A stretch of DNA of 64,000 nucleotides from positions 64,001 to 128,000 of the IMG/VR virus record IMGVR_UViG_3300042013_000045. One strand, given 5' to 3'. Origin of the DNA: a virus. A program made the position numbers and the translations under genes. Shown in pieces: positions 7,037 through 40,521 of this stretch. A model generated the notes under the pieces. It did not search any database and had not been told where the DNA came from. It saw only the letters and a program-made list of their open reading frames with translations. Position 1 is the stretch's first letter. Each line of letters opens with the position of its first letter.

Positions 7037-7085
7037 CATAGATCCCCTCACAGCTCCTTAGAGGGCTGTGAGGGGATCTATGCCG
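7037..7085. terminator. long bidirectional terminator hairpin between convergent genes
   Basis: CATAGATCCCCTCACAGCTC...GGGCTGTGAGGGGATCTATG, followed by CCG. Confidence 0.8.
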
Positions 7086-29419: not shown

Positions 29420-29893
29420 ATGATGGGTGATCAAAACCTACCAGTCTCGATTGCCCAGCTCGATCCGCTTGAACTGGAACTGTTGTCTGGGGACGAGAGC
29501 ATCGAGATCACGATCTCGACTCGCCCTGATGGGGGTGGTACGGGGAAGAAGACTTTCCGTACCACCCTCAACAACGTCCTCGGTATTTACGCACGTCGGA
29601 AGGATAACCCGAACGACGTAACCGCCGAGCAGGTTGGCTCATTTACAATCGAGCAGATGACAGCGATCCTCAAGGAGAAGCTGGGTGTCGACGAAGTTGC
29701 TGTCAACTCGCTAAGACTTGGCGGTAGCACCAAAGAACAAATCATTGAAGAAGCACGGTCAGGGACGGTCAACGACTCTAACAACCTTGGCGGTCTGCCA
29801 GCAGCAGATTACGTCCTCAACTCCGAGCTTTCCAGCGCGTTTGAAAAGATGGCACAGTCTTTCGATGAAATGACTGTGAACATTAGCACCTAA
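29420..29893 (+). CDS. short fibre-family protein
   Basis: RKDNPNDVTAEQVG and KLG....NS.RLGG modules shared with the downstream fibre. Confidence 0.6.
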   Translation: MMGDQNLPVSIAQLDPLELELLSGDESIEITISTRPDGGGTGKKTFRTTLNNVLGIYARRKDNPNDVTAEQVGSFTIEQMTAILKEKLGVDEVAVNSLRLGGSTKEQIIEEARSGTVNDSNNLGGLPAADYVLNSELSSAFEKMAQSFDEMTVNIST

Positions 29894-29912
29894 ACCCTCC
29901 AAGGTAGAGATC

Positions 29913-32126
29913 ATGAACCTGACTCCCGAAAAACTTGCTTCGCTGCTTCAATCTATTGCAGCTTTCAACACCGCGCTGAAAACCCAACTGGGTCTGAAAC
30001 TCGGTATCAACGAGAAAGCTGGTGACACCTCCAAGTTCGACGGCAAGACCCTTGCCGAAGTCACCGCAGAAATCAATGCCGCCACTGGCGTTGAGCTCGA
30101 TGCGCTGGAACTGATCGTTAACACTTTCATCGCACGTCGTGATAACCCGCACGTCGTCACTAAAGCTCAGGTTGGTCTGGGTCTGGTGGATAACTTCGGT
30201 ACCGCCACTGGCGCTGAAGTCGTTACCGGTACCGCTGCTGACAAGTTCGTGACTCCTGCCGGTATCGCTGCGTTCTGGGCTGATAAAGTAGGCGCTGCCC
30301 CAGGTACCCTGGATACCATCGCTGAGATCGCTGCTGCCCTGCAAGACAACCCCGACGTTATCGATCAGATCCTGACCGGTCTGGGTAACAAGTTGGACAA
30401 GACCGCTCAAGCGGCTGACACCGTTCTCTTCGGTGGCTTCACTCTGGCCGAAGTTATCGCCCAAGCCAACGATGGCGTTGACCTCAGTCAAGTGCTGTTG
30501 AAGTCGGACGACCTCGGCGCAAGCAAGGTTGACGTTACTGGCGATGAACCTGGCACTGGTCTGACCCTGAAGCTGCACTTGGAAGGTATCGCTACCGACC
30601 TGGCTGCCGGCGTTACTGCAACTGAAGCCGCTCAAGCCGATGCTGACGCTGCACAAGTCGCTGCCGATGCCGCCTCTACTCTGGCCGGCACCAAGTTGGG
30701 CGCTACTGCTCAGGCTGTTGACTCGGCTAAGCTGGAAGGCAAGACTCTGGCTGAAGTTGTTGCTCTGGCACAAGACGGCGTTGATCTGGGCAATGTTGTT
30801 CAGAAAGACGACGACTTCTCCACTTACAAAGTTGGCGTTGATACTTTCGCCACTCTGTTCGCTGGTGTGCAGACTGACCTCGACGCACTGGAAGCCCTCA
30901 TTCCTGAGAAAGCTTCTCTGGCTGACGTCACCGCAGGTACCGACGACGCAAAATTCGTCACCGTTATCGGCGTTAAGCAAGCTGCTTCTGACGCTATCGA
31001 TGCCCTCATCGACGGCGCTCCTGATGCACTGAACACCCTGAACGAACTGGCTGTTGCACTGGCTGACCAGAACGACGCAGTTGCTGCAATCGTCTCGTCC
31101 CTGGCTGATAAGCTGGGCAAGCTGGAAACCGCTGCTGACTCCACCATGTTCGCCGGCAAGACCCTTGCCCAGTTCCTGACTGACGCGACCGCTGCCACCC
31201 ACGTCATCACCGATCCACTGCAAGCACGTATTGTTGCGCTGGAAGAAGCTACCGGCGGTGAAGGTGATTTCCTGAAGTCTACCAGCGACCTGGGTCTCAA
31301 CCCAGTAGCACTGACTTCGGACGGCGTAGAGCCAGCCAAGACCCTGAAAGTACACCTGGAAGGCGTTGAAGCTGATCTGGCTACTGGCGTTACTGCCACT
31401 GCTGCTGCTCAACAAGCCGCTGATGACGCCGCTGCCGCTGCACTGACTGCTGACGGTAAAGCCGTTACTGCACAGGCCGCTGCTGACGGTGCTCAAGCTG
31501 CTGCTGATGCTCTGGCAACCAGCAAGCTGGACGTTACCGGTATCGCTGCTGATTCCGATAAACTGGCCGGTCTGAGCCTGACTCAGATCCTGAGCCAGAT
31601 CCGCGGTGGTGAAGTTCAAACCATCCAGGCCGTACAAGACGCTCTCGATGCTTACATCGCGACCGCTCCTGTCTCCCTGACCAAAGCCACTGGCGCTGAA
31701 GCTATCGCCGGTACCGACGACGCGAAGTACATCACTGCTCTGGCCCTCAAAGCCAAAGTTGACGATGCCATCGCTCAACTGGTTGATGGTGCGCCAACTG
31801 CACTCGACACTCTGAAAGAACTGGCTGACAAGCTGGCCACCGACGGTGATGCACTTGCCGCCCTGGTCACCACTGTCGACGGTAAACTCGGTAAACTCGA
31901 GCAAGCAGCTGACTCCCTGAAACTGAACGGCAAGACCCAGGCCGAGCTGACTGCTAGCGAAGCTGAAGTAACAGCCGGTGTCGTTACTGACAAGTTCGTC
32001 ACCCCTGCTGCGCTGGCCCCGTCCTTGGCTGCCATCGGCCAAAGTCAAACCGACCTCGTCGCTCTGGTAGATGAAATGACTGCTGCGTTCAACGCCGCTG
32101 CCGATGACATCGACCCTGCCGCCTAA
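29913..32126 (+). CDS. repetitive fibre (shaft) protein
   Basis: DNPHVVTKAQVGLG; 6x KL.....A.DS.KL.GKT; 3x GAP..L.TL.EL; 4x A..A....G....K(F/Y)(V/I)T; very strong codon bias. Confidence 0.75.
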   Translation: MNLTPEKLASLLQSIAAFNTALKTQLGLKLGINEKAGDTSKFDGKTLAEVTAEINAATGVELDALELIVNTFIARRDNPHVVTKAQVGLGLVDNFGTATGAEVVTGTAADKFVTPAGIAAFWADKVGAAPGTLDTIAEIAAALQDNPDVIDQILTGLGNKLDKTAQAADTVLFGGFTLAEVIAQANDGVDLSQVLLKSDDLGASKVDVTGDEPGTGLTLKLHLEGIATDLAAGVTATEAAQADADAAQVAADAASTLAGTKLGATAQAVDSAKLEGKTLAEVVALAQDGVDLGNVVQKDDDFSTYKVGVDTFATLFAGVQTDLDALEALIPEKASLADVTAGTDDAKFVTVIGVKQAASDAIDALIDGAPDALNTLNELAVALADQNDAVAAIVSSLADKLGKLETAADSTMFAGKTLAQFLTDATAATHVITDPLQARIVALEEATGGEGDFLKSTSDLGLNPVALTSDGVEPAKTLKVHLEGVEADLATGVTATAAAQQAADDAAAAALTADGKAVTAQAAADGAQAAADALATSKLDVTGIAADSDKLAGLSLTQILSQIRGGEVQTIQAVQDALDAYIATAPVSLTKATGAEAIAGTDDAKYITALALKAKVDDAIAQLVDGAPTALDTLKELADKLATDGDALAALVTTVDGKLGKLEQAADSLKLNGKTQAELTASEAEVTAGVVTDKFVTPAALAPSLAAIGQSQTDLVALVDEMTAAFNAAADDIDPAA

Positions 32127-32147
32127 GACCGCACACGCGGTATAAAA

Positions 32148-32186
32148 CATAGAGCCCCGGAGCATTGCTGCTCCGGGGCTCTATGC
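32148..32186. terminator. bidirectional terminator hairpin
   Basis: CATAGAGCCCCGGAGCA-TTGC-TGCTCCGGGGCTCTATG. Confidence 0.8.
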
Positions 32187-32188
32187 TG

Positions 32189-32728
32189 TCAGTCGATGGT
32201 TCTGACCTGACCTTCGTCAGTCATGCGGATACGGCCTTCATCTGTAATCCGACGGATACCGCCCGACCAGAAGATGTTGATCGTCTTCTTCCCGATGTAA
32301 ATGAGGGAATCAGGCTTGGCTACCAAGTCAATGGAGGTGTAGAACAACAGAGAACCCAGTGGGTCTTCCAAGTCCAAGTCAAACTCACCGTCTACGAGGT
32401 TGAACTTACCGTCGATGTACGCAATGAATGCTTCCTTGTCATTCACGTCCGTCAGGTCTTCGATGTCAATGCTGAAGTCTGGGTAGTACTTCTCAATGTC
32501 AGCCCGAGCGTAGTAGAGGTCCACCTCATCCTTTACGGAACTACCAGCCCTACTCTTGACCAAGACGATACTGTTATCGCCGTCAGGATCGTCTACAGGA
32601 CGGGGTAGGTCTACTTCCACCTCATTGCTGGTCAACTTGATCTTGTTGTTACGGTAGACCAAGCTGAAGAAGTTCTCCAGCGCAGACTTCTCTGGGTCGA
32701 ACTGGAAACGATCGCAATACTCGGACAT
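32189..32728 (-). CDS. putative virion structural protein
   Basis: Y.R.DI and DSLIYIG repeat type; C-terminal RITDEG.RMTDEG repeat. Confidence 0.55.
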   Translation of the reverse strand: MSEYCDRFQFDPEKSALENFFSLVYRNNKIKLTSNEVEVDLPRPVDDPDGDNSIVLVKSRAGSSVKDEVDLYYARADIEKYYPDFSIDIEDLTDVNDKEAFIAYIDGKFNLVDGEFDLDLEDPLGSLLFYTSIDLVAKPDSLIYIGKKTINIFWSGGIRRITDEGRIRMTDEGQVRTID

Positions 32729-32752
32729 AGGTCACCTGTTGGAAGTGGGGCA

Positions 32753-33208
32753 TCATACTATTTCGCCGCAATACTCAAAGGGTATCCCGTTATCCTCAGC
32801 GATCTCCCCTATGACTTCAATGTAGATGTGACGGTGGCAGAACTTACCCGCTGTGCAGTAACACGCTACCGCTTTATCCGCATCGCCTTCCAATAGCTCT
32901 TCGAAGGCCTCAGGGGTAGCTAGGAGCTGTCTGTGCATCTTCTCCCGATAAAGCCTCGTGTATTCCTCATCCGTCACTTCACCGCGCTTATACGCCCAGA
33001 GAACATCAGGGGTCGGAGCGAACCGTTGATCGCCTGACTTGACCGTAATGTCAAACAACTCAATCCCTAACGCCTTGGCTTTCCTCCATTGGGGGATAGC
33101 GACTGTGTACCATTTCATACTACCCTCCTGCTGGGTAAGCGCATAAAGAGAGGGTGGAACGGTTGCCCGTCCACCCTTCCTGACGTACTGGTATTCCACA
33201 GTGATCAT
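32753..33208 (-). CDS. DUF488-like (rhodanese/phosphatase-fold) protein
   Basis: DITVKSG, FAPT, EY...Y..KM and ACYC....FCHRH motifs. Confidence 0.65.
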   Translation of the reverse strand: MITVEYQYVRKGGRATVPPSLYALTQQEGSMKWYTVAIPQWRKAKALGIELFDITVKSGDQRFAPTPDVLWAYKRGEVTDEEYTRLYREKMHRQLLATPEAFEELLEGDADKAVACYCTAGKFCHRHIYIEVIGEIAEDNGIPFEYCGEIV

Positions 33209-33600
33209 CCCCTAGGCAACCTTCAGTCAAGCCGGGACCGAAAGTGCCTAGAGGCTGTACACTGCTCTAGTCTTGGTGAGGAGCGGGCACCTTGACCAGA
33301 ACAACAGCGATGCGGAGAGACAAGCCCTGCAACGCGTCATCGTTTACCACGCAGACACCAAGTTGCGGTCGAGTCCATGCCAGACTCACTTGGACCGAAT
33401 GGAACCAAACCCTCATTCACCTTGCTATCACGACGAGTTCGCAAGGCTTGCAACAAAATAAGCGGAACAGGGGACCCGAAGGTCCCCGTCCTAGTGAGCG
33501 GCACGCTGGCCGCGGGAAGGGATGCACTGAACCCTTCCGTCGACGCCGTTAGGCGTATGCAGGGAGATAGCCTTTTGTTAAAGAACGTATTTCCTACATA
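33209..33600 (-). ncRNA. candidate ~390-nt structured leader or ncRNA
   Basis: About nine consecutive hairpins with G-U pairs and a cUUCGg loop on the - strand; the last hairpin buries the AGGGG RBS of the downstream gene; TATG at 33597-33600. Confidence 0.55.
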
Positions 33601-33624
33601 TAATGGTAGAAGGAGAGTATTAAA

Positions 33625-34815
33625 TTACGGCTCTTCTTCTTCTTTCAGCTTCTTCTCGGCCTCTTCCTTCTCCTTGGCTTCAGCTTCTTTCTCAGCATCG
33701 GTTTTCTCGATGGTGAAAGCGCCTGGCTCGGACAGTACATCGTCGTCACCATCAGTAGCGTCAGGATTTTCAGTAGGAGGAGTGCTGTCGTCGCCGGAAC
33801 CGGTTGTAGGAACCTCTTCAACAACTGGTTCTTCAACCACGACTTGATCGCCATCGCCTGCAACCGCGGCAGCAGCTTCAGCTTCGGCCAGAGCAGGATC
33901 AACCGCTTCGTCACCAGCGCCACCAGTAGCAGCGGCTGCGTCAGCATCGATCACTGCATCAGGATCAGTTGGATCGGTAGCAGCAGCACCGTCGGTGCCA
34001 GCAGCAGGTTCAGCATTACCGGTGTTGGTGGTAGTGGAGACTTTGACACCTTCATCTACCTTCACGCCGGAAGCATCTTCACCGCGAGCTTTTTCAGTCA
34101 GCTTGGTGCCGAGGTCAGAACCGTCATCAGGACCGGTTGCTTGATCAGCTTCGGAGCGAGCGTCACTCACCTTGGTTTCGGCCACTTCACGAGCGTTGTC
34201 GACCACCTGAGTGATACGATCAACAGCGTCGGTCAGATCGCCCAGCACTTGAGTCGCTTCGAGATCTTCGACGGAGATGCTCAGCGCGTCGGTGATTGCC
34301 GGTACTTGCTTGATGAAGTGCACAGCCATCGGACGCAGGTTGTCGACAGTGATGCCTTCCATGCTGGCCATGGTTTTCAGAGCGCCCAGACCGCTGTGGT
34401 ACACGTTGATCTCAGCCGCTTGCTGTTCCAGACTTTCCAGCGAAGGGCCGGCAGTCATTTGGTCGCGAGTGGTGAACGGTTGCTCGACTTCTTCTTCAGC
34501 TTTGGTGGCCAGGTGCTCTTCGAGCTTAGCCACGGTAGTGAGATGAGGTTGCAGGATGTCTTGCATGATCAACTCAACTTTGGCAGCTGGGTCAGTCACG
34601 CCGTCAATCTTGACCATCTCTTCGTCCAGGCCAGCCGGTTCCAGCACGTCCTCGGTCAGAGTCGTGTAAGCAACCGCGTCGCTGTCCTCCATAGAAGGCT
34701 TGGCAAGTAGGGCCTGGCCGACAACCATCAGCGATTCAAGACTGGAACGGAATGCAACGGTGGCGGCGTGCTGCTCCCGTGCAGTCGGGGTAGCGGTCTT
34801 GTTAACTTGAGTCAT
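33625..34815 (-). CDS. acidic internal head protein-like (prohead-protease substrate)
   Basis: Multiple SLE/SME/SVE sites and a long acidic low-complexity C-terminus; likely start MTQVNK with GAGG RBS. Confidence 0.6.
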   Translation of the reverse strand: MTQVNKTATPTAREQHAATVAFRSSLESLMVVGQALLAKPSMEDSDAVAYTTLTEDVLEPAGLDEEMVKIDGVTDPAAKVELIMQDILQPHLTTVAKLEEHLATKAEEEVEQPFTTRDQMTAGPSLESLEQQAAEINVYHSGLGALKTMASMEGITVDNLRPMAVHFIKQVPAITDALSISVEDLEATQVLGDLTDAVDRITQVVDNAREVAETKVSDARSEADQATGPDDGSDLGTKLTEKARGEDASGVKVDEGVKVSTTTNTGNAEPAAGTDGAAATDPTDPDAVIDADAAAATGGAGDEAVDPALAEAEAAAAVAGDGDQVVVEEPVVEEVPTTGSGDDSTPPTENPDATDGDDDVLSEPGAFTIEKTDAEKEAEAKEKEEAEKKLKEEEEP

Positions 34816-34865: not shown

Positions 34866-36968
34866 ATGTACGGTAGTGTTGCACGACTCGTTGGGTTCGT
34901 GTCTGTTAAAGAAACGGATTCTCACATTATAGTGAATGGTATCCCTGGATTGCGGTTCAGTCGAGACGTGTATAATTACTGGAAGACCAGTAAGATCAAC
35001 AACAACATGTTTTCGGCAATCTCCAAATCCCAGGTCAAGTTCCCGAAGTTCTTCGCGATCGAAGTCGACTATATGTTCCAACGGCTCCTAGAGAGTCGTC
35101 GCACATCAGTCTCCCGTCGCATCCTTCAGAAGTCGATTGAGGAGTTGAAGTCTCATACATGGTTGAGTAAAATCGGTTCTGGTCAGTTCAACAGTAAGCT
35201 GGACTTCAGCAAACTAAAGGACCTGAACGTCACACTATTTGCCCACCAACTTTCTTTTTTACAGACGTACGACGTTACCACGCAGGAATATTCCCTCAAT
35301 GGGATGCTCATGGACGTGGCGGCTGGTGGCGGTAAAACCATCACCGGATATGCCCTTGGCCACCTTTTGGGTTCTGACACACAGATCTACGTGGTGCCTA
35401 AGAACTCCGCGGTTGACGTGTGGGAGAAGACCATCGCTAAGCAGCTCCCTGCATACGGGGGTGAGTACTTCTTCAAGAACGGTGTACCAGACTACTGGTC
35501 GTCCATGCACGGTACTGAGCCATCGCTGGGCAAGAAGATCTACATCGTTCACTACGACTACCTCGAGAAGTTCCTGAAGTTCGTCAAGGCCAACAAACGC
35601 GCTTTTGGCAAGACCTTCATCGACATCGACGAGTCGCACAACTTCAACGAAGAGTCGCAGCGTACCGGTACGTTGATTGACCTGTGCCTGACCTTGGACG
35701 CCAAAGACGTGGTACACGCCTCGGGTACGCCATTCAAGGCCATGGGCTCTGAAGCGATCACTCTGCTGTCGACCATCTGCCGCGACTTCACTCCTGAGGC
35801 TAAGGCAGCCTTCCGGAAGATCTTTGGTAAGGAAGCCAAACGCGCTAACGAGATCTTGGCTAACCGGATCGGCATTGTTTCCTTTAAGGTACACAAGGCG
35901 GACATCGAGACCCCAGGCGTGGATTACCACACGGTCAAGGTCAAGATCCCTAACGGCGATCTGTACACCCTGGATGCCATCCGCATCAAGATGACCGCGT
36001 TCATCGATTCGCAGATGAAGATGTACCAGAAAGGGATGCCTGAGTACCAGCAACTGTACGACCTGTGCATGGAACTCCATGGCAAGTCTTTGGCACGAGC
36101 GGCTCCTGTACAGATCAAGGCTTTTGAACTGTACAAGACTTACATCAAACAGATCCGTAGGGGTTACGATCCTGTGACCATGAAAGACATGGTGATGTAC
36201 TGCAACCGTTACGAGCTGAAGAACATTGTGCCTTCGCTGCCAGAAGCGTACCGTAAGCCGTTCATCAATGTACGGGCTATCATCAAGTACGTGGAACTGA
36301 AGGTCTTGGGTGAAGCGCTGTCGCAGGTACTGGGCAAGTTGCGTATCCAGTGTCATTTGGACATGCTGGCGAACATGGGTCTTGAAGACATCATCGACAA
36401 CGCGCAGAAGAAGACAGTGATCTTTACCAGCTACGTCGAAGTGGTCAAGTCGTTGGAACTGGCATTGCCGCAGGCTGGGTATAAGCCGCTCTTCGTTTAT
36501 GGTGAGACCAACAAAGACTTGCCAGCGATCATCAAGAAGTTCCATGAAGACCCAGATGCCAACCCACTGGTAGCGACCTTCAAGTCACTGTCCACTGCTG
36601 TTCCGCTGACGGCTGCCAACACACTCGCCTTCACGAACTCCCCGTTCCGTGACTACGAACGTACGCAGACCATCGCACGGGTTGACCGCATCGGTCAGGA
36701 CCAGCGTTGCCATGTGCACGACATCTTCTTGGACACTGGGGAATCGCCAAACATCTCCACGCGCTCTAAGGACATCTTGAGCTGGAGTAAGGAACAGGTC
36801 GAAACGATTCTGGGTGTGAAGACACCGGATGACATTGAGGCTTCTCTGGAGGACTTAGCAGAGAACCCGAATGCTACCCTGACCTCCGCTGAGGACTTCA
36901 TCGAGAAGCTCAAAGCAGAGCTGCCGATCGACGTCATCGAGACTGATGGCATCGAGCGCGAGGAATAA
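34866..36968 (+). CDS. superfamily 2 (SNF2/DEXH-like) helicase
   Basis: AAGGGKT, DESH, SGTP and QTIARVDRIGQ motifs. Confidence 0.85.
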   Translation: MYGSVARLVGFVSVKETDSHIIVNGIPGLRFSRDVYNYWKTSKINNNMFSAISKSQVKFPKFFAIEVDYMFQRLLESRRTSVSRRILQKSIEELKSHTWLSKIGSGQFNSKLDFSKLKDLNVTLFAHQLSFLQTYDVTTQEYSLNGMLMDVAAGGGKTITGYALGHLLGSDTQIYVVPKNSAVDVWEKTIAKQLPAYGGEYFFKNGVPDYWSSMHGTEPSLGKKIYIVHYDYLEKFLKFVKANKRAFGKTFIDIDESHNFNEESQRTGTLIDLCLTLDAKDVVHASGTPFKAMGSEAITLLSTICRDFTPEAKAAFRKIFGKEAKRANEILANRIGIVSFKVHKADIETPGVDYHTVKVKIPNGDLYTLDAIRIKMTAFIDSQMKMYQKGMPEYQQLYDLCMELHGKSLARAAPVQIKAFELYKTYIKQIRRGYDPVTMKDMVMYCNRYELKNIVPSLPEAYRKPFINVRAIIKYVELKVLGEALSQVLGKLRIQCHLDMLANMGLEDIIDNAQKKTVIFTSYVEVVKSLELALPQAGYKPLFVYGETNKDLPAIIKKFHEDPDANPLVATFKSLSTAVPLTAANTLAFTNSPFRDYERTQTIARVDRIGQDQRCHVHDIFLDTGESPNISTRSKDILSWSKEQVETILGVKTPDDIEASLEDLAENPNATLTSAEDFIEKLKAELPIDVIETDGIEREE

Positions 36969-40486: not shown

Positions 40487-40521
40487 CGGCATAAAGCCGG
40501 GACCGAAGTCCCGGCTTTATG
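40487..40521 (-). terminator. UUCG hairpin + TTTATGCCG
   Basis: CATAAAGCCGGGAC-CGAA-GTCCCGGCTTTATG. Confidence 0.8.

Follow-up and report, generated by a model that had tools for sequence, protein, structure and literature searches.

A proposed gene for a conserved structured RNA of about 450 nucleotides upstream of the DUF488 gene in DT01-like jumbo phages

The DNA analysed here (the window) was a stretch of 64,000 nucleotides, covering positions 64001-128000 of an IMG/VR phage record of 172.8 kb. By its genes, it belonged to the giant phages with phiKZ-type biology. At the locus of interest, a gene for a DUF488-N3a protein was preceded by the gene of an acidic protein and followed by that of a DUF7941 virion protein on the minus strand, with an SNF2 helicase gene running in the opposite direction (Table 1). 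The best match of the DUF488 protein was in Pseudomonas phage pPa_SNUABM_DT01 (DT01; 57.6% identity), which encodes virion and non-virion multisubunit RNA polymerases (vRNAP and nvRNAP) homologous to those of phiKZ (PMC8541153). Homologues of this protein were present in 206 phage records, mostly from phiKZ-like Pseudomonas, Erwinia and Salmonella jumbo phages. A function for DUF488 was not found in the literature. The acidic and DUF7941 proteins on either side had no homology to the phiKZ-type gp152 and gp149 homologues. No tRNA or tmRNA was detected by ARAGORN in the 64-kb window, and the neighbours of the RNA described below were protein genes.

The acidic protein (33625-34815, minus strand) was strongly acidic, had a C-terminal half rich in D, E, A and T and belonged to no Pfam or PHROG family. 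In related phages it ended in a conserved hydrophobic tail of the form G-x-A-N-x-R-x-x-G-x-L-L-G; the protein of the window lacked this tail and had a KEEE-rich stretch at its end instead. Elsewhere in the window, a 737-aa tail-fibre-like protein (29913-32126, plus strand) carried repeated GTDDAKFVT-type motifs. Its gene was fully overlapped by a spurious 760-codon frame (29883-32165, minus strand), and gene callers could choose the wrong strand here.

In the preliminary description of this DNA, the DUF488 gene was taken to start at ATG 33208, as in its longest open reading frame. The homologues, however, aligned only from residue 24-31 of that frame, and the annotated protein of DT01 as well as those of all the relatives began at the equivalent of MKWYTV, that is, at ATG 33118 with the Shine-Dalgarno sequence GGAGGG just upstream. 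The stretch 33119-33208 had not kept its frame in L032, the closest relative, where the indels were 6 and 1 nt long. The true gap upstream of the DUF488 gene thus spanned 33119-33624, about 506 nt.

Table 1. Genes and RNA elements of the DUF488 locus (window positions).
Feature	Position	Strand	Remarks
SNF2 helicase gene	34866-36968	+	Divergent from RNA locus
Acidic-protein gene, upstream of RNA	33625-34815	-	Without family assignment
Conserved 5' box CTACCATTATATGTAGG	33593..33609	-	Near-invariant in 22 sequences
Proposed RNA gene, ~450 nt	33146..33597	-	From G of TATG box to U-tract after terminator hairpin; both ends putative
P1 hairpin	33543..33556	-	ACGCC-UAAC-GGCGU; 97% paired (helix 1)
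P2 hairpin	33515..33538	-	Position kept, sequence variable
P3 hairpin	33498..33513	-	Single-sequence folds
P4 hairpin, UUCG loop	33464..33491	-	Core 33470-33487; helix 2, 7/7 pairs compensatory
Central multiloop closed by P5	33340..33456	-	Encloses P6 and P7; R1 scores 81.6 bits
P6, 7-bp stem	33419..33447	-	First listed as 33420-33446; helix 4, 7/7 compensatory, 100% paired
P7, two-tier hairpin	33347..33405	-	Helices 6 and 7, 9/10 pairs compensatory; inner P7 33358-33393
P8 hairpin	33309..33341	-	CUCC at loop-stem edge; helix 8, 5/7 pairs compensatory
P10	33266..33300	-	Contains inner hairpin P10b, 33275-33291
Terminal long stem P11/P12	33199..33264	-	Helix 9, 23 pairs, 16 compensatory, 93.8% paired
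GCAA-loop terminator hairpin	33152-33176	-	Followed by UCUCUUUAUG; whole module 33142..33176
DUF488-N3a gene	32753..33118	-	Pfam PF22751, 1.4e-07; true start ATG 33118

Searches for relatives of this gap took the DUF488 protein and conserved DNA patterns as queries, and 22 distinct versions were obtained from the window, the cultured phage DT01, and IMG/VR and metagenome contigs, the relatives' contigs being 250-277 kb long. All 22 members had the same gene order, namely the divergent SNF2 helicase, the acidic protein, the conserved element, DUF488 and DUF7941. When the gaps were aligned, near-invariant blocks were separated by helices that differed in sequence yet were still complementary. 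Conservation started sharply at the 5' box and stopped at the terminator throughout the 22 members, with a length of about 450 nt in the window and about 425-440 nt in the relatives. The gap contains a proposed gene for a folded non-coding RNA of about 450 nt.

The family was narrowly distributed. A covariance model of the central domain of the RNA (R1) matched exactly once in the genome of the window and once in that of DT01, with scores of 81.6 and 120.4 bits, respectively. The model had no match in PhiPA3, the phiKZ-like phage phiHQ, Erwinia phage Asesino and Noxifer, all four of which encode DUF488 and had a small ORF, not the RNA, in the corresponding space. Among 50,697 phage records searched with blastn, the window's RNA had no match and the DT01 version matched DT01 alone, which was also the only cultured phage with the RNA. 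A search of prokaryotes (one genome per species) with the family pattern gave two matches, both at chance level (R1 scores of 12-18 bits vs 82-120 bits for true members), and 7 of 17 metagenome pattern matches were chance matches in coding DNA. Thus, the RNA was a single-copy element confined to the DT01-like clade, kept in all known DT01-like phages and absent from bacterial genomes.

The preliminary description had named translation of the region, for example of a 49-codon MRVWFHSV ORF (33267-33416), as one finding that would refute its reading. We considered the possibility that the gap encodes small proteins or that its hairpins are due to chance. Several ORFs of 30-55 codons were indeed present in the window. 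However, no ORF recurred at the same place or in the same frame across the 22 members, and even L032 lacked the 49-codon ORF. Substitutions were spread evenly over the three codon positions without a third-position bias, and indels of 1-2 nt, not multiples of three, were common. Judged by these comparisons the region is not coding, and with the overwhelming covariation described below, this alternative was rejected as hardly credible. Spurious ORFs of 55-156 codons covered the RNA gene on both strands between 33089 and 33847, e.g. 33377-33847 (plus) and 33292-33552 (plus).

The fold was more stable than expected by chance, with a minimum free energy of -168.9 kcal/mol for the window's RNA vs -145.7 +/- 6.7 kcal/mol for shuffled sequences (z = -3.47; 0 of 100 shuffles were as good). 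RNAalifold, applied to 19 aligned sequences, gave a consensus of 67 pairs, 47 of them with compensatory changes, and pair statistics were computed for 65 of the 67 on the same alignment. The observed pairs were formed in 93.9% of the cells, compared with 34-54% when the partners were slid and 78.8% in shuffled alignments. Both sides had changed in 45 of the 65 pairs (16-20 with slid partners, 27 in shuffles), and the covariation score was 0.522, a value reached by none of 500 shuffles (0.224) and far above that of slid partners (at most 0.124). Covariation, which had been proposed as a check on the structure, is in this alignment the decisive evidence for a structured RNA. The strand could be assigned as well: several U-G pairs were invariant, including ones found in 19 of 19 sequences in the terminal stem, and because these would be A-C on the opposite strand, the RNA has the sense of the neighbouring genes, on the window's minus strand, as had been proposed.

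All the hairpins listed in the preliminary description were found on the minus strand where it had placed them, and all but one were conserved helices. The exception, 33397-33418, was specific to the window: it competed with the conserved outer stem of P7 and had no support in relatives. The element had been delimited as 33209-33600; it extends further, probably to about 33146. In the window the fold opened with four tiled hairpins, P1-P4, of which P1 read UGCGC-N6-GCGUA in relatives. A hairpin at the position of P2 was present in the single-sequence folds of all 22 members. About half of the relatives, but not the window, had a C-rich P3 loop (ACUCCCCCA). Downstream of P4, the central multiloop was closed by the long-range helix P5, in which UUGUU (33452-33456) paired with AACGA (33340-33344); this helix (helix 3) was 100% paired and nearly invariant. 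The U-rich run after the UUCG hairpin, earlier read as a possible terminator, was actually the 5' strand of P5. As P5 ties this run to sequence about 110 nt downstream, a division of the element into a small RNA of about 130 nt and a separate leader was unlikely.

Within the multiloop, the P6 loop GAACUCGUCGUGAUA (33426-33440) was near-invariant, with helix 5 invariant. By inspection, this loop could form two tandem sheared G-A pairs and a 2-bp mini-helix, a combination that is a common protein-binding design. The window and L032 had a longer P7 than the other members, and both lacked P9, an extra hairpin with a CCGGCU loop present in most relatives. The 9-nt loop of P10b, CCCGCUCCU (33279-33287), contained an anti-Shine-Dalgarno-like CUCCU; in 22 of 22 members CUCCU lay in a loop of 8-9 nt closed by 3-5 pairs, with the loop consensus CC(A/G)CUCCU. 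The terminal stem, of which P12 (33209-33254) was the inner part, contained ACAGCCUCUAG in its 5' arm and CUAGGGGAUG in its 3' arm. The most conserved parts of the RNA were not plain helices. They were the P6 loop, the junction GGUAAACGAUG, the CUCC of P8 and the CC(A/G)CUCCU loop, along with the terminal-stem arms CAGCCUCC and GGGGGAWG.

The beginning of the RNA could be related to phage transcription. The non-virion RNA polymerase of phiKZ has TATG as the core of its late promoters and begins transcription at the G (PMC4666361). The 5' box, which read GTATAGTATGTAGGA in most relatives, contained a TATG at 33597-33600, so the earlier proposal that the RNA begins after this TATG fitted a phiKZ-type promoter core. 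By analogy, the box would act as a promoter for the nvRNAP, with the G at 33597 as the probable first nucleotide. The 14-nt box was discarded as a repeated promoter, as it occurred once in the window and in the genome, which spoke against an established promoter class.

At the other end, a run of 7-10 U came immediately after the terminal stem in most relatives, so that this stem would there serve as the terminator, the part assigned in the window to the GCAA-loop hairpin, which had compensatory changes in L032. A simple terminator scanner called neither the terminal stem nor the GCAA hairpin, its loop and U-run rules being too narrow, and for this reason the terminator reading rests on a genome-wide association of hairpins with TATG: a stable hairpin preceded 34 of 73 TATGC[CG] sites vs 105 of 1000 random positions (10.5%). 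One such hairpin-plus-TATG module (33142-33176) separated the RNA from DUF488, and its TATG is the probable DUF488 promoter; in the window and L032 it was the sole promoter-like element for that gene. On the simplest reading, the GCAA hairpin marks the end of the RNA unit, and the DUF488 unit begins directly behind it. The RNA probably extends from G 33597 as far as about 33146.

Several recurrent motifs were noted alongside. A GC-rich hairpin followed by (Y)TATGCC(G) occurred in about 34 copies genome-wide, some of them two-way palindromes (GGCATA-hairpin-TATGCC). Examples in the window were at 7079, 17729, 28807 and 37013 on the plus strand and at 40493, 41316, 45306, 49160, 52974, 55542 and 62089 on the minus strand. 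The module looked like a combined terminator and phiKZ-type TATG late promoter with the extended consensus TATGCCGT. Many modules had ATACATT(A/G)T 20-40 nt downstream, after an AT-rich stretch (in the window at about 19480, 40455, 45265 and 62050, all on the minus strand). This motif was enriched and strand-biased (11 vs 1 control in DT01; 7 vs 1 in the L003 record), and is probably a second promoter class of the clade. In relatives, the stretch from the RNA terminator to the DUF488 ATG contained a second box, GGTA-N3-4-TATAG (L002:2964-3009, L003:2955-3000). This box resembled the 5' box of the RNA, was located 10-20 nt upstream of the DUF488 Shine-Dalgarno sequence in most relatives, and was missing in the window and L032. 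GTAnnnTATAG was rejected as a general promoter of the clade, since it occurred only once in DT01 and was thus locus-specific.

The position of the RNA next to DUF488 suggested a regulatory leader, which the preliminary description had proposed in the form of a hairpin burying the ribosome-binding site. The corrected start removed the basis of that proposal. The AGGGG-ATG at 33206-33213 was the invariant GGGGGAWG of the 3' arm of the terminal stem, and its 'ATG' read AAG or ACG in 7 of 22 members. The true Shine-Dalgarno sequence and ATG 33118 lay outside every conserved helix, 3' of the terminator and TATG at 33142-33176. An RBS-sequestering leader or RNA thermometer was therefore rejected, as neither the Shine-Dalgarno sequence nor the start codon of DUF488 was inside any conserved hairpin. 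What stood of the earlier interpretation was a conserved, structured, untranslated minus-strand RNA; its role as a leader was left without support.

A broader version of this idea is a cis-acting attenuator or riboswitch-like leader that senses a ligand, a protein or temperature and sets how far transcription passes its terminal stem or terminator into DUF488. In 21 of 22 loci, DUF488 came directly after the RNA, and the terminal stem, followed by a U-run in most relatives, was far more conserved in sequence than an ordinary terminator. Moreover, two candidate pairings were mutually exclusive with the nested helices, as would be expected of an expression platform. The first would join GCUGY (33304-33308, directly behind P8) to RCAGC at the foot of the terminal stem; the window, L032 and L027 have GCUGU/ACAGC for this pairing, and L046 has GUUGC/GCAAC. 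In the second, UCGUCGU of the P6 loop would pair with ACGAUGR, overlapping P5 and P8. Both were 97% compatible with the alignment and had 5 compensatory cells (reached by 0 of 500 shuffles), in sequences that were nearly invariant; they could represent tertiary contacts, a conformational switch or coincidence. However, these pairings offered only the 5 informative cells, the ribosome-binding site and start codon of DUF488 were outside all the conserved helices, and a TATG promoter core followed the terminator. An RNA that always lies in the 5' UTR, with no gene or promoter in between, was not what we found: in addition to this TATG, one locus (L027:11314-11784, minus strand) had an extra ORF of about 110-156 codons between the RNA and DUF488. 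More than 200 phages had DUF488 without the RNA, among them Noxifer, PhiPA3 and a phiKZ-like phage. Known attenuators, riboswitches and T-box leaders share with the DT01-clade RNA a conserved end stem that doubles as terminator in most members and the possibility of alternative pairings. On the other hand, the RNA, at about 450 nt, was far larger than known riboswitches and two to four times larger than this group of leaders, did not involve the DUF488 RBS and had no recognisable ligand-binding core. Altogether, we considered a cis-acting leader unlikely.

The same distribution bore on the proposal that the RNA is the partner of the DUF488-like enzyme. Their co-occurrence was one-sided: DUF488 accompanied the RNA in the RNA loci, and the RNA was missing from the great majority of phages with DUF488, DT01 being the only cultured phage with both among the 206 records. 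A general partnership was thus not supported.

The RNA always followed the acidic-protein gene, and it could accordingly be viewed as a structured 3' UTR of that mRNA, for example one that stabilises the message or directs its processing or localisation. The stop codon (33625-33627) and the TATG box were just 27 nt apart in the window, with no hairpin between them. The lack of a terminator between the acidic gene and the RNA means that read-through from upstream is possible, which spoke against a stand-alone RNA. However, a GC hairpin was present between the stop codon and the 5' box in L003, L005, L008, L016 and L004, conservation began abruptly at the box rather than at the stop codon, and 450 nt with 12 covarying helices and invariant loops went far beyond the needs of a stabiliser. 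We regarded a 3' UTR as quite improbable.

We favoured another explanation, with a probability of about 0.6: the RNA is a single-copy non-coding RNA gene of the DT01 clade, most likely with its own transcription unit and not a leader of DUF488. Transcription would start at the G of the conserved TATG box and end at the intrinsic terminator, after which DUF488 would be served by its own TATG; from this arrangement we infer independent transcription of the RNA. The locus with another ORF between the RNA and DUF488 was in line with a stand-alone RNA. Action in trans through the invariant loops was our leading guess, and any specific mechanism is proposed with low confidence. Tentatively, a rigid scaffold of covarying helices may display a few invariant single-stranded elements, among them the P6 loop as a likely protein-binding or tertiary-docking site and the C-rich CUCC(U) loops, which would be able to pair with purine-rich, Shine-Dalgarno-like RNA. 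CTCC outnumbered GGAG in every member (3-7 vs 0-4), an enrichment that was modest and came from phylogenetically related members. The complement of the P6 loop was not found elsewhere in the 65%-complete genome, and when the phage's own genome was searched for antisense targets of the P6 and P10b loops or of GUAAACGAUG, the RNA gene itself was the only match.

Regulators of the RNAIII type pair with Shine-Dalgarno sequences through C-rich loops. The work of Geissmann and colleagues from 2009 is said to describe such C-rich (UCCC) apical loops in Staphylococcus aureus RNAIII and related sRNAs. The DT01-clade RNA had a similar design, as it was hairpin-tiled, several hundred nucleotides long and equipped with C-rich apical-loop motifs. 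The resemblance was one of design only, since the phage-encoded RNA had no homology to RNAIII and no embedded peptide gene, and its most conserved element, the P6 loop, was not C-rich. The CUCCU displayed in a small apical loop also resembled the anti-Shine-Dalgarno tail of 16S rRNA. A more speculative form of the trans-acting reading, to which we gave little credence, is that the phage uses this RNA to imitate the tail by which the ribosome docks mRNAs, with several copies of a 16S anti-SD-like sequence on display. The copies would lie in the P10b loop (CCACUCCU), at the loop edge of P8 (CUCC), in the C-rich loop of P3 and in the terminal stem (CCUCC). They might capture the Shine-Dalgarno sequences of particular mRNAs, or else a factor recognising the 3' end of 16S rRNA, while the invariant P6 loop and the other parts of the fold would bring in a protein partner.

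Large and ornate phage RNAs include ROOL and GOLLD, which form cages through kissing loops (PMC12286853). The DT01-clade RNA was comparable to them in having more than 400 nt, many covarying helices and invariant loops or junctions. It might form an RNA-only homo-oligomeric assembly by intermolecular contacts of its exposed loops, given that its invariant loops had no intramolecular partner in the nested fold and several C-rich loops competed for one G-rich strand. However, it shared neither sequence nor structure homology with the two families (no Rfam match at E<=5 in 11 members), was smaller than GOLLD, and occurred in jumbo phages of the Pseudomonas type, which encode RNA polymerases of their own. 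ROOL and GOLLD are often next to tRNA genes, a neighbourhood that was not seen here. An assembly of this type seemed improbable.

Small RNAs of phiKZ and 201phi2-1 have been mapped by ONT-cappable-seq and were below 250 nt and mostly derived from 5' UTRs (PMC10914365, PMC11512511). Like the RNA described here, they are jumbo-phage non-coding RNAs bounded by phage promoters and terminators, but they are smaller and come from other loci, e.g. upstream of the tail gene gp182. Other known classes were rejected. A group I intron did not fit, as the flanking genes were complete and unrelated and the P3-P9 core (RF00028) was not matched in Rfam; a tRNA-like RNA or tmRNA did not fit, as ARAGORN found no acceptor/T-arm module.

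The cmscan comparison with Rfam that had been suggested matched no family, either in the window or in relatives. The families covered included GOLLD, ROOL, OLE, raiA, 6S, RNase P, tmRNA, group I and II introns and riboswitches. At gathering thresholds, Rfam 15 gave 0 matches in the whole window; under permissive settings, the region 32700-33900 gave only chance-level matches (E>1, far below gathering), and 10 relatives had no consistent match at E<=5. The GenBank record of DT01 had nothing annotated under the RNA element. As far as these searches can tell, the RNA matches no described RNA family. Fragments of it might be among the 8,495 unnamed candidate motifs of 29-151 nt reported from an IMG/VR survey (PMC10690425).

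For annotation, these results mean that DUF488 starts 90 nt later than its longest ORF implies, and that about 450 nt which ORF callers fill with spurious frames are an RNA gene, a gap that automatic annotation could hide. Bacteria and phages have few known classes of structured non-coding RNA above 400 nt, and all of these have turned out to be instructive. Because the RNA combines strong covariation with a lineage that has its own transcription machinery and with a cultured member, pPa_SNUABM_DT01, growing on Pseudomonas aeruginosa, experimental work on it is feasible. If it did prove to be an anti-Shine-Dalgarno mimic, translation would be reprogrammed late in jumbo-phage infection.
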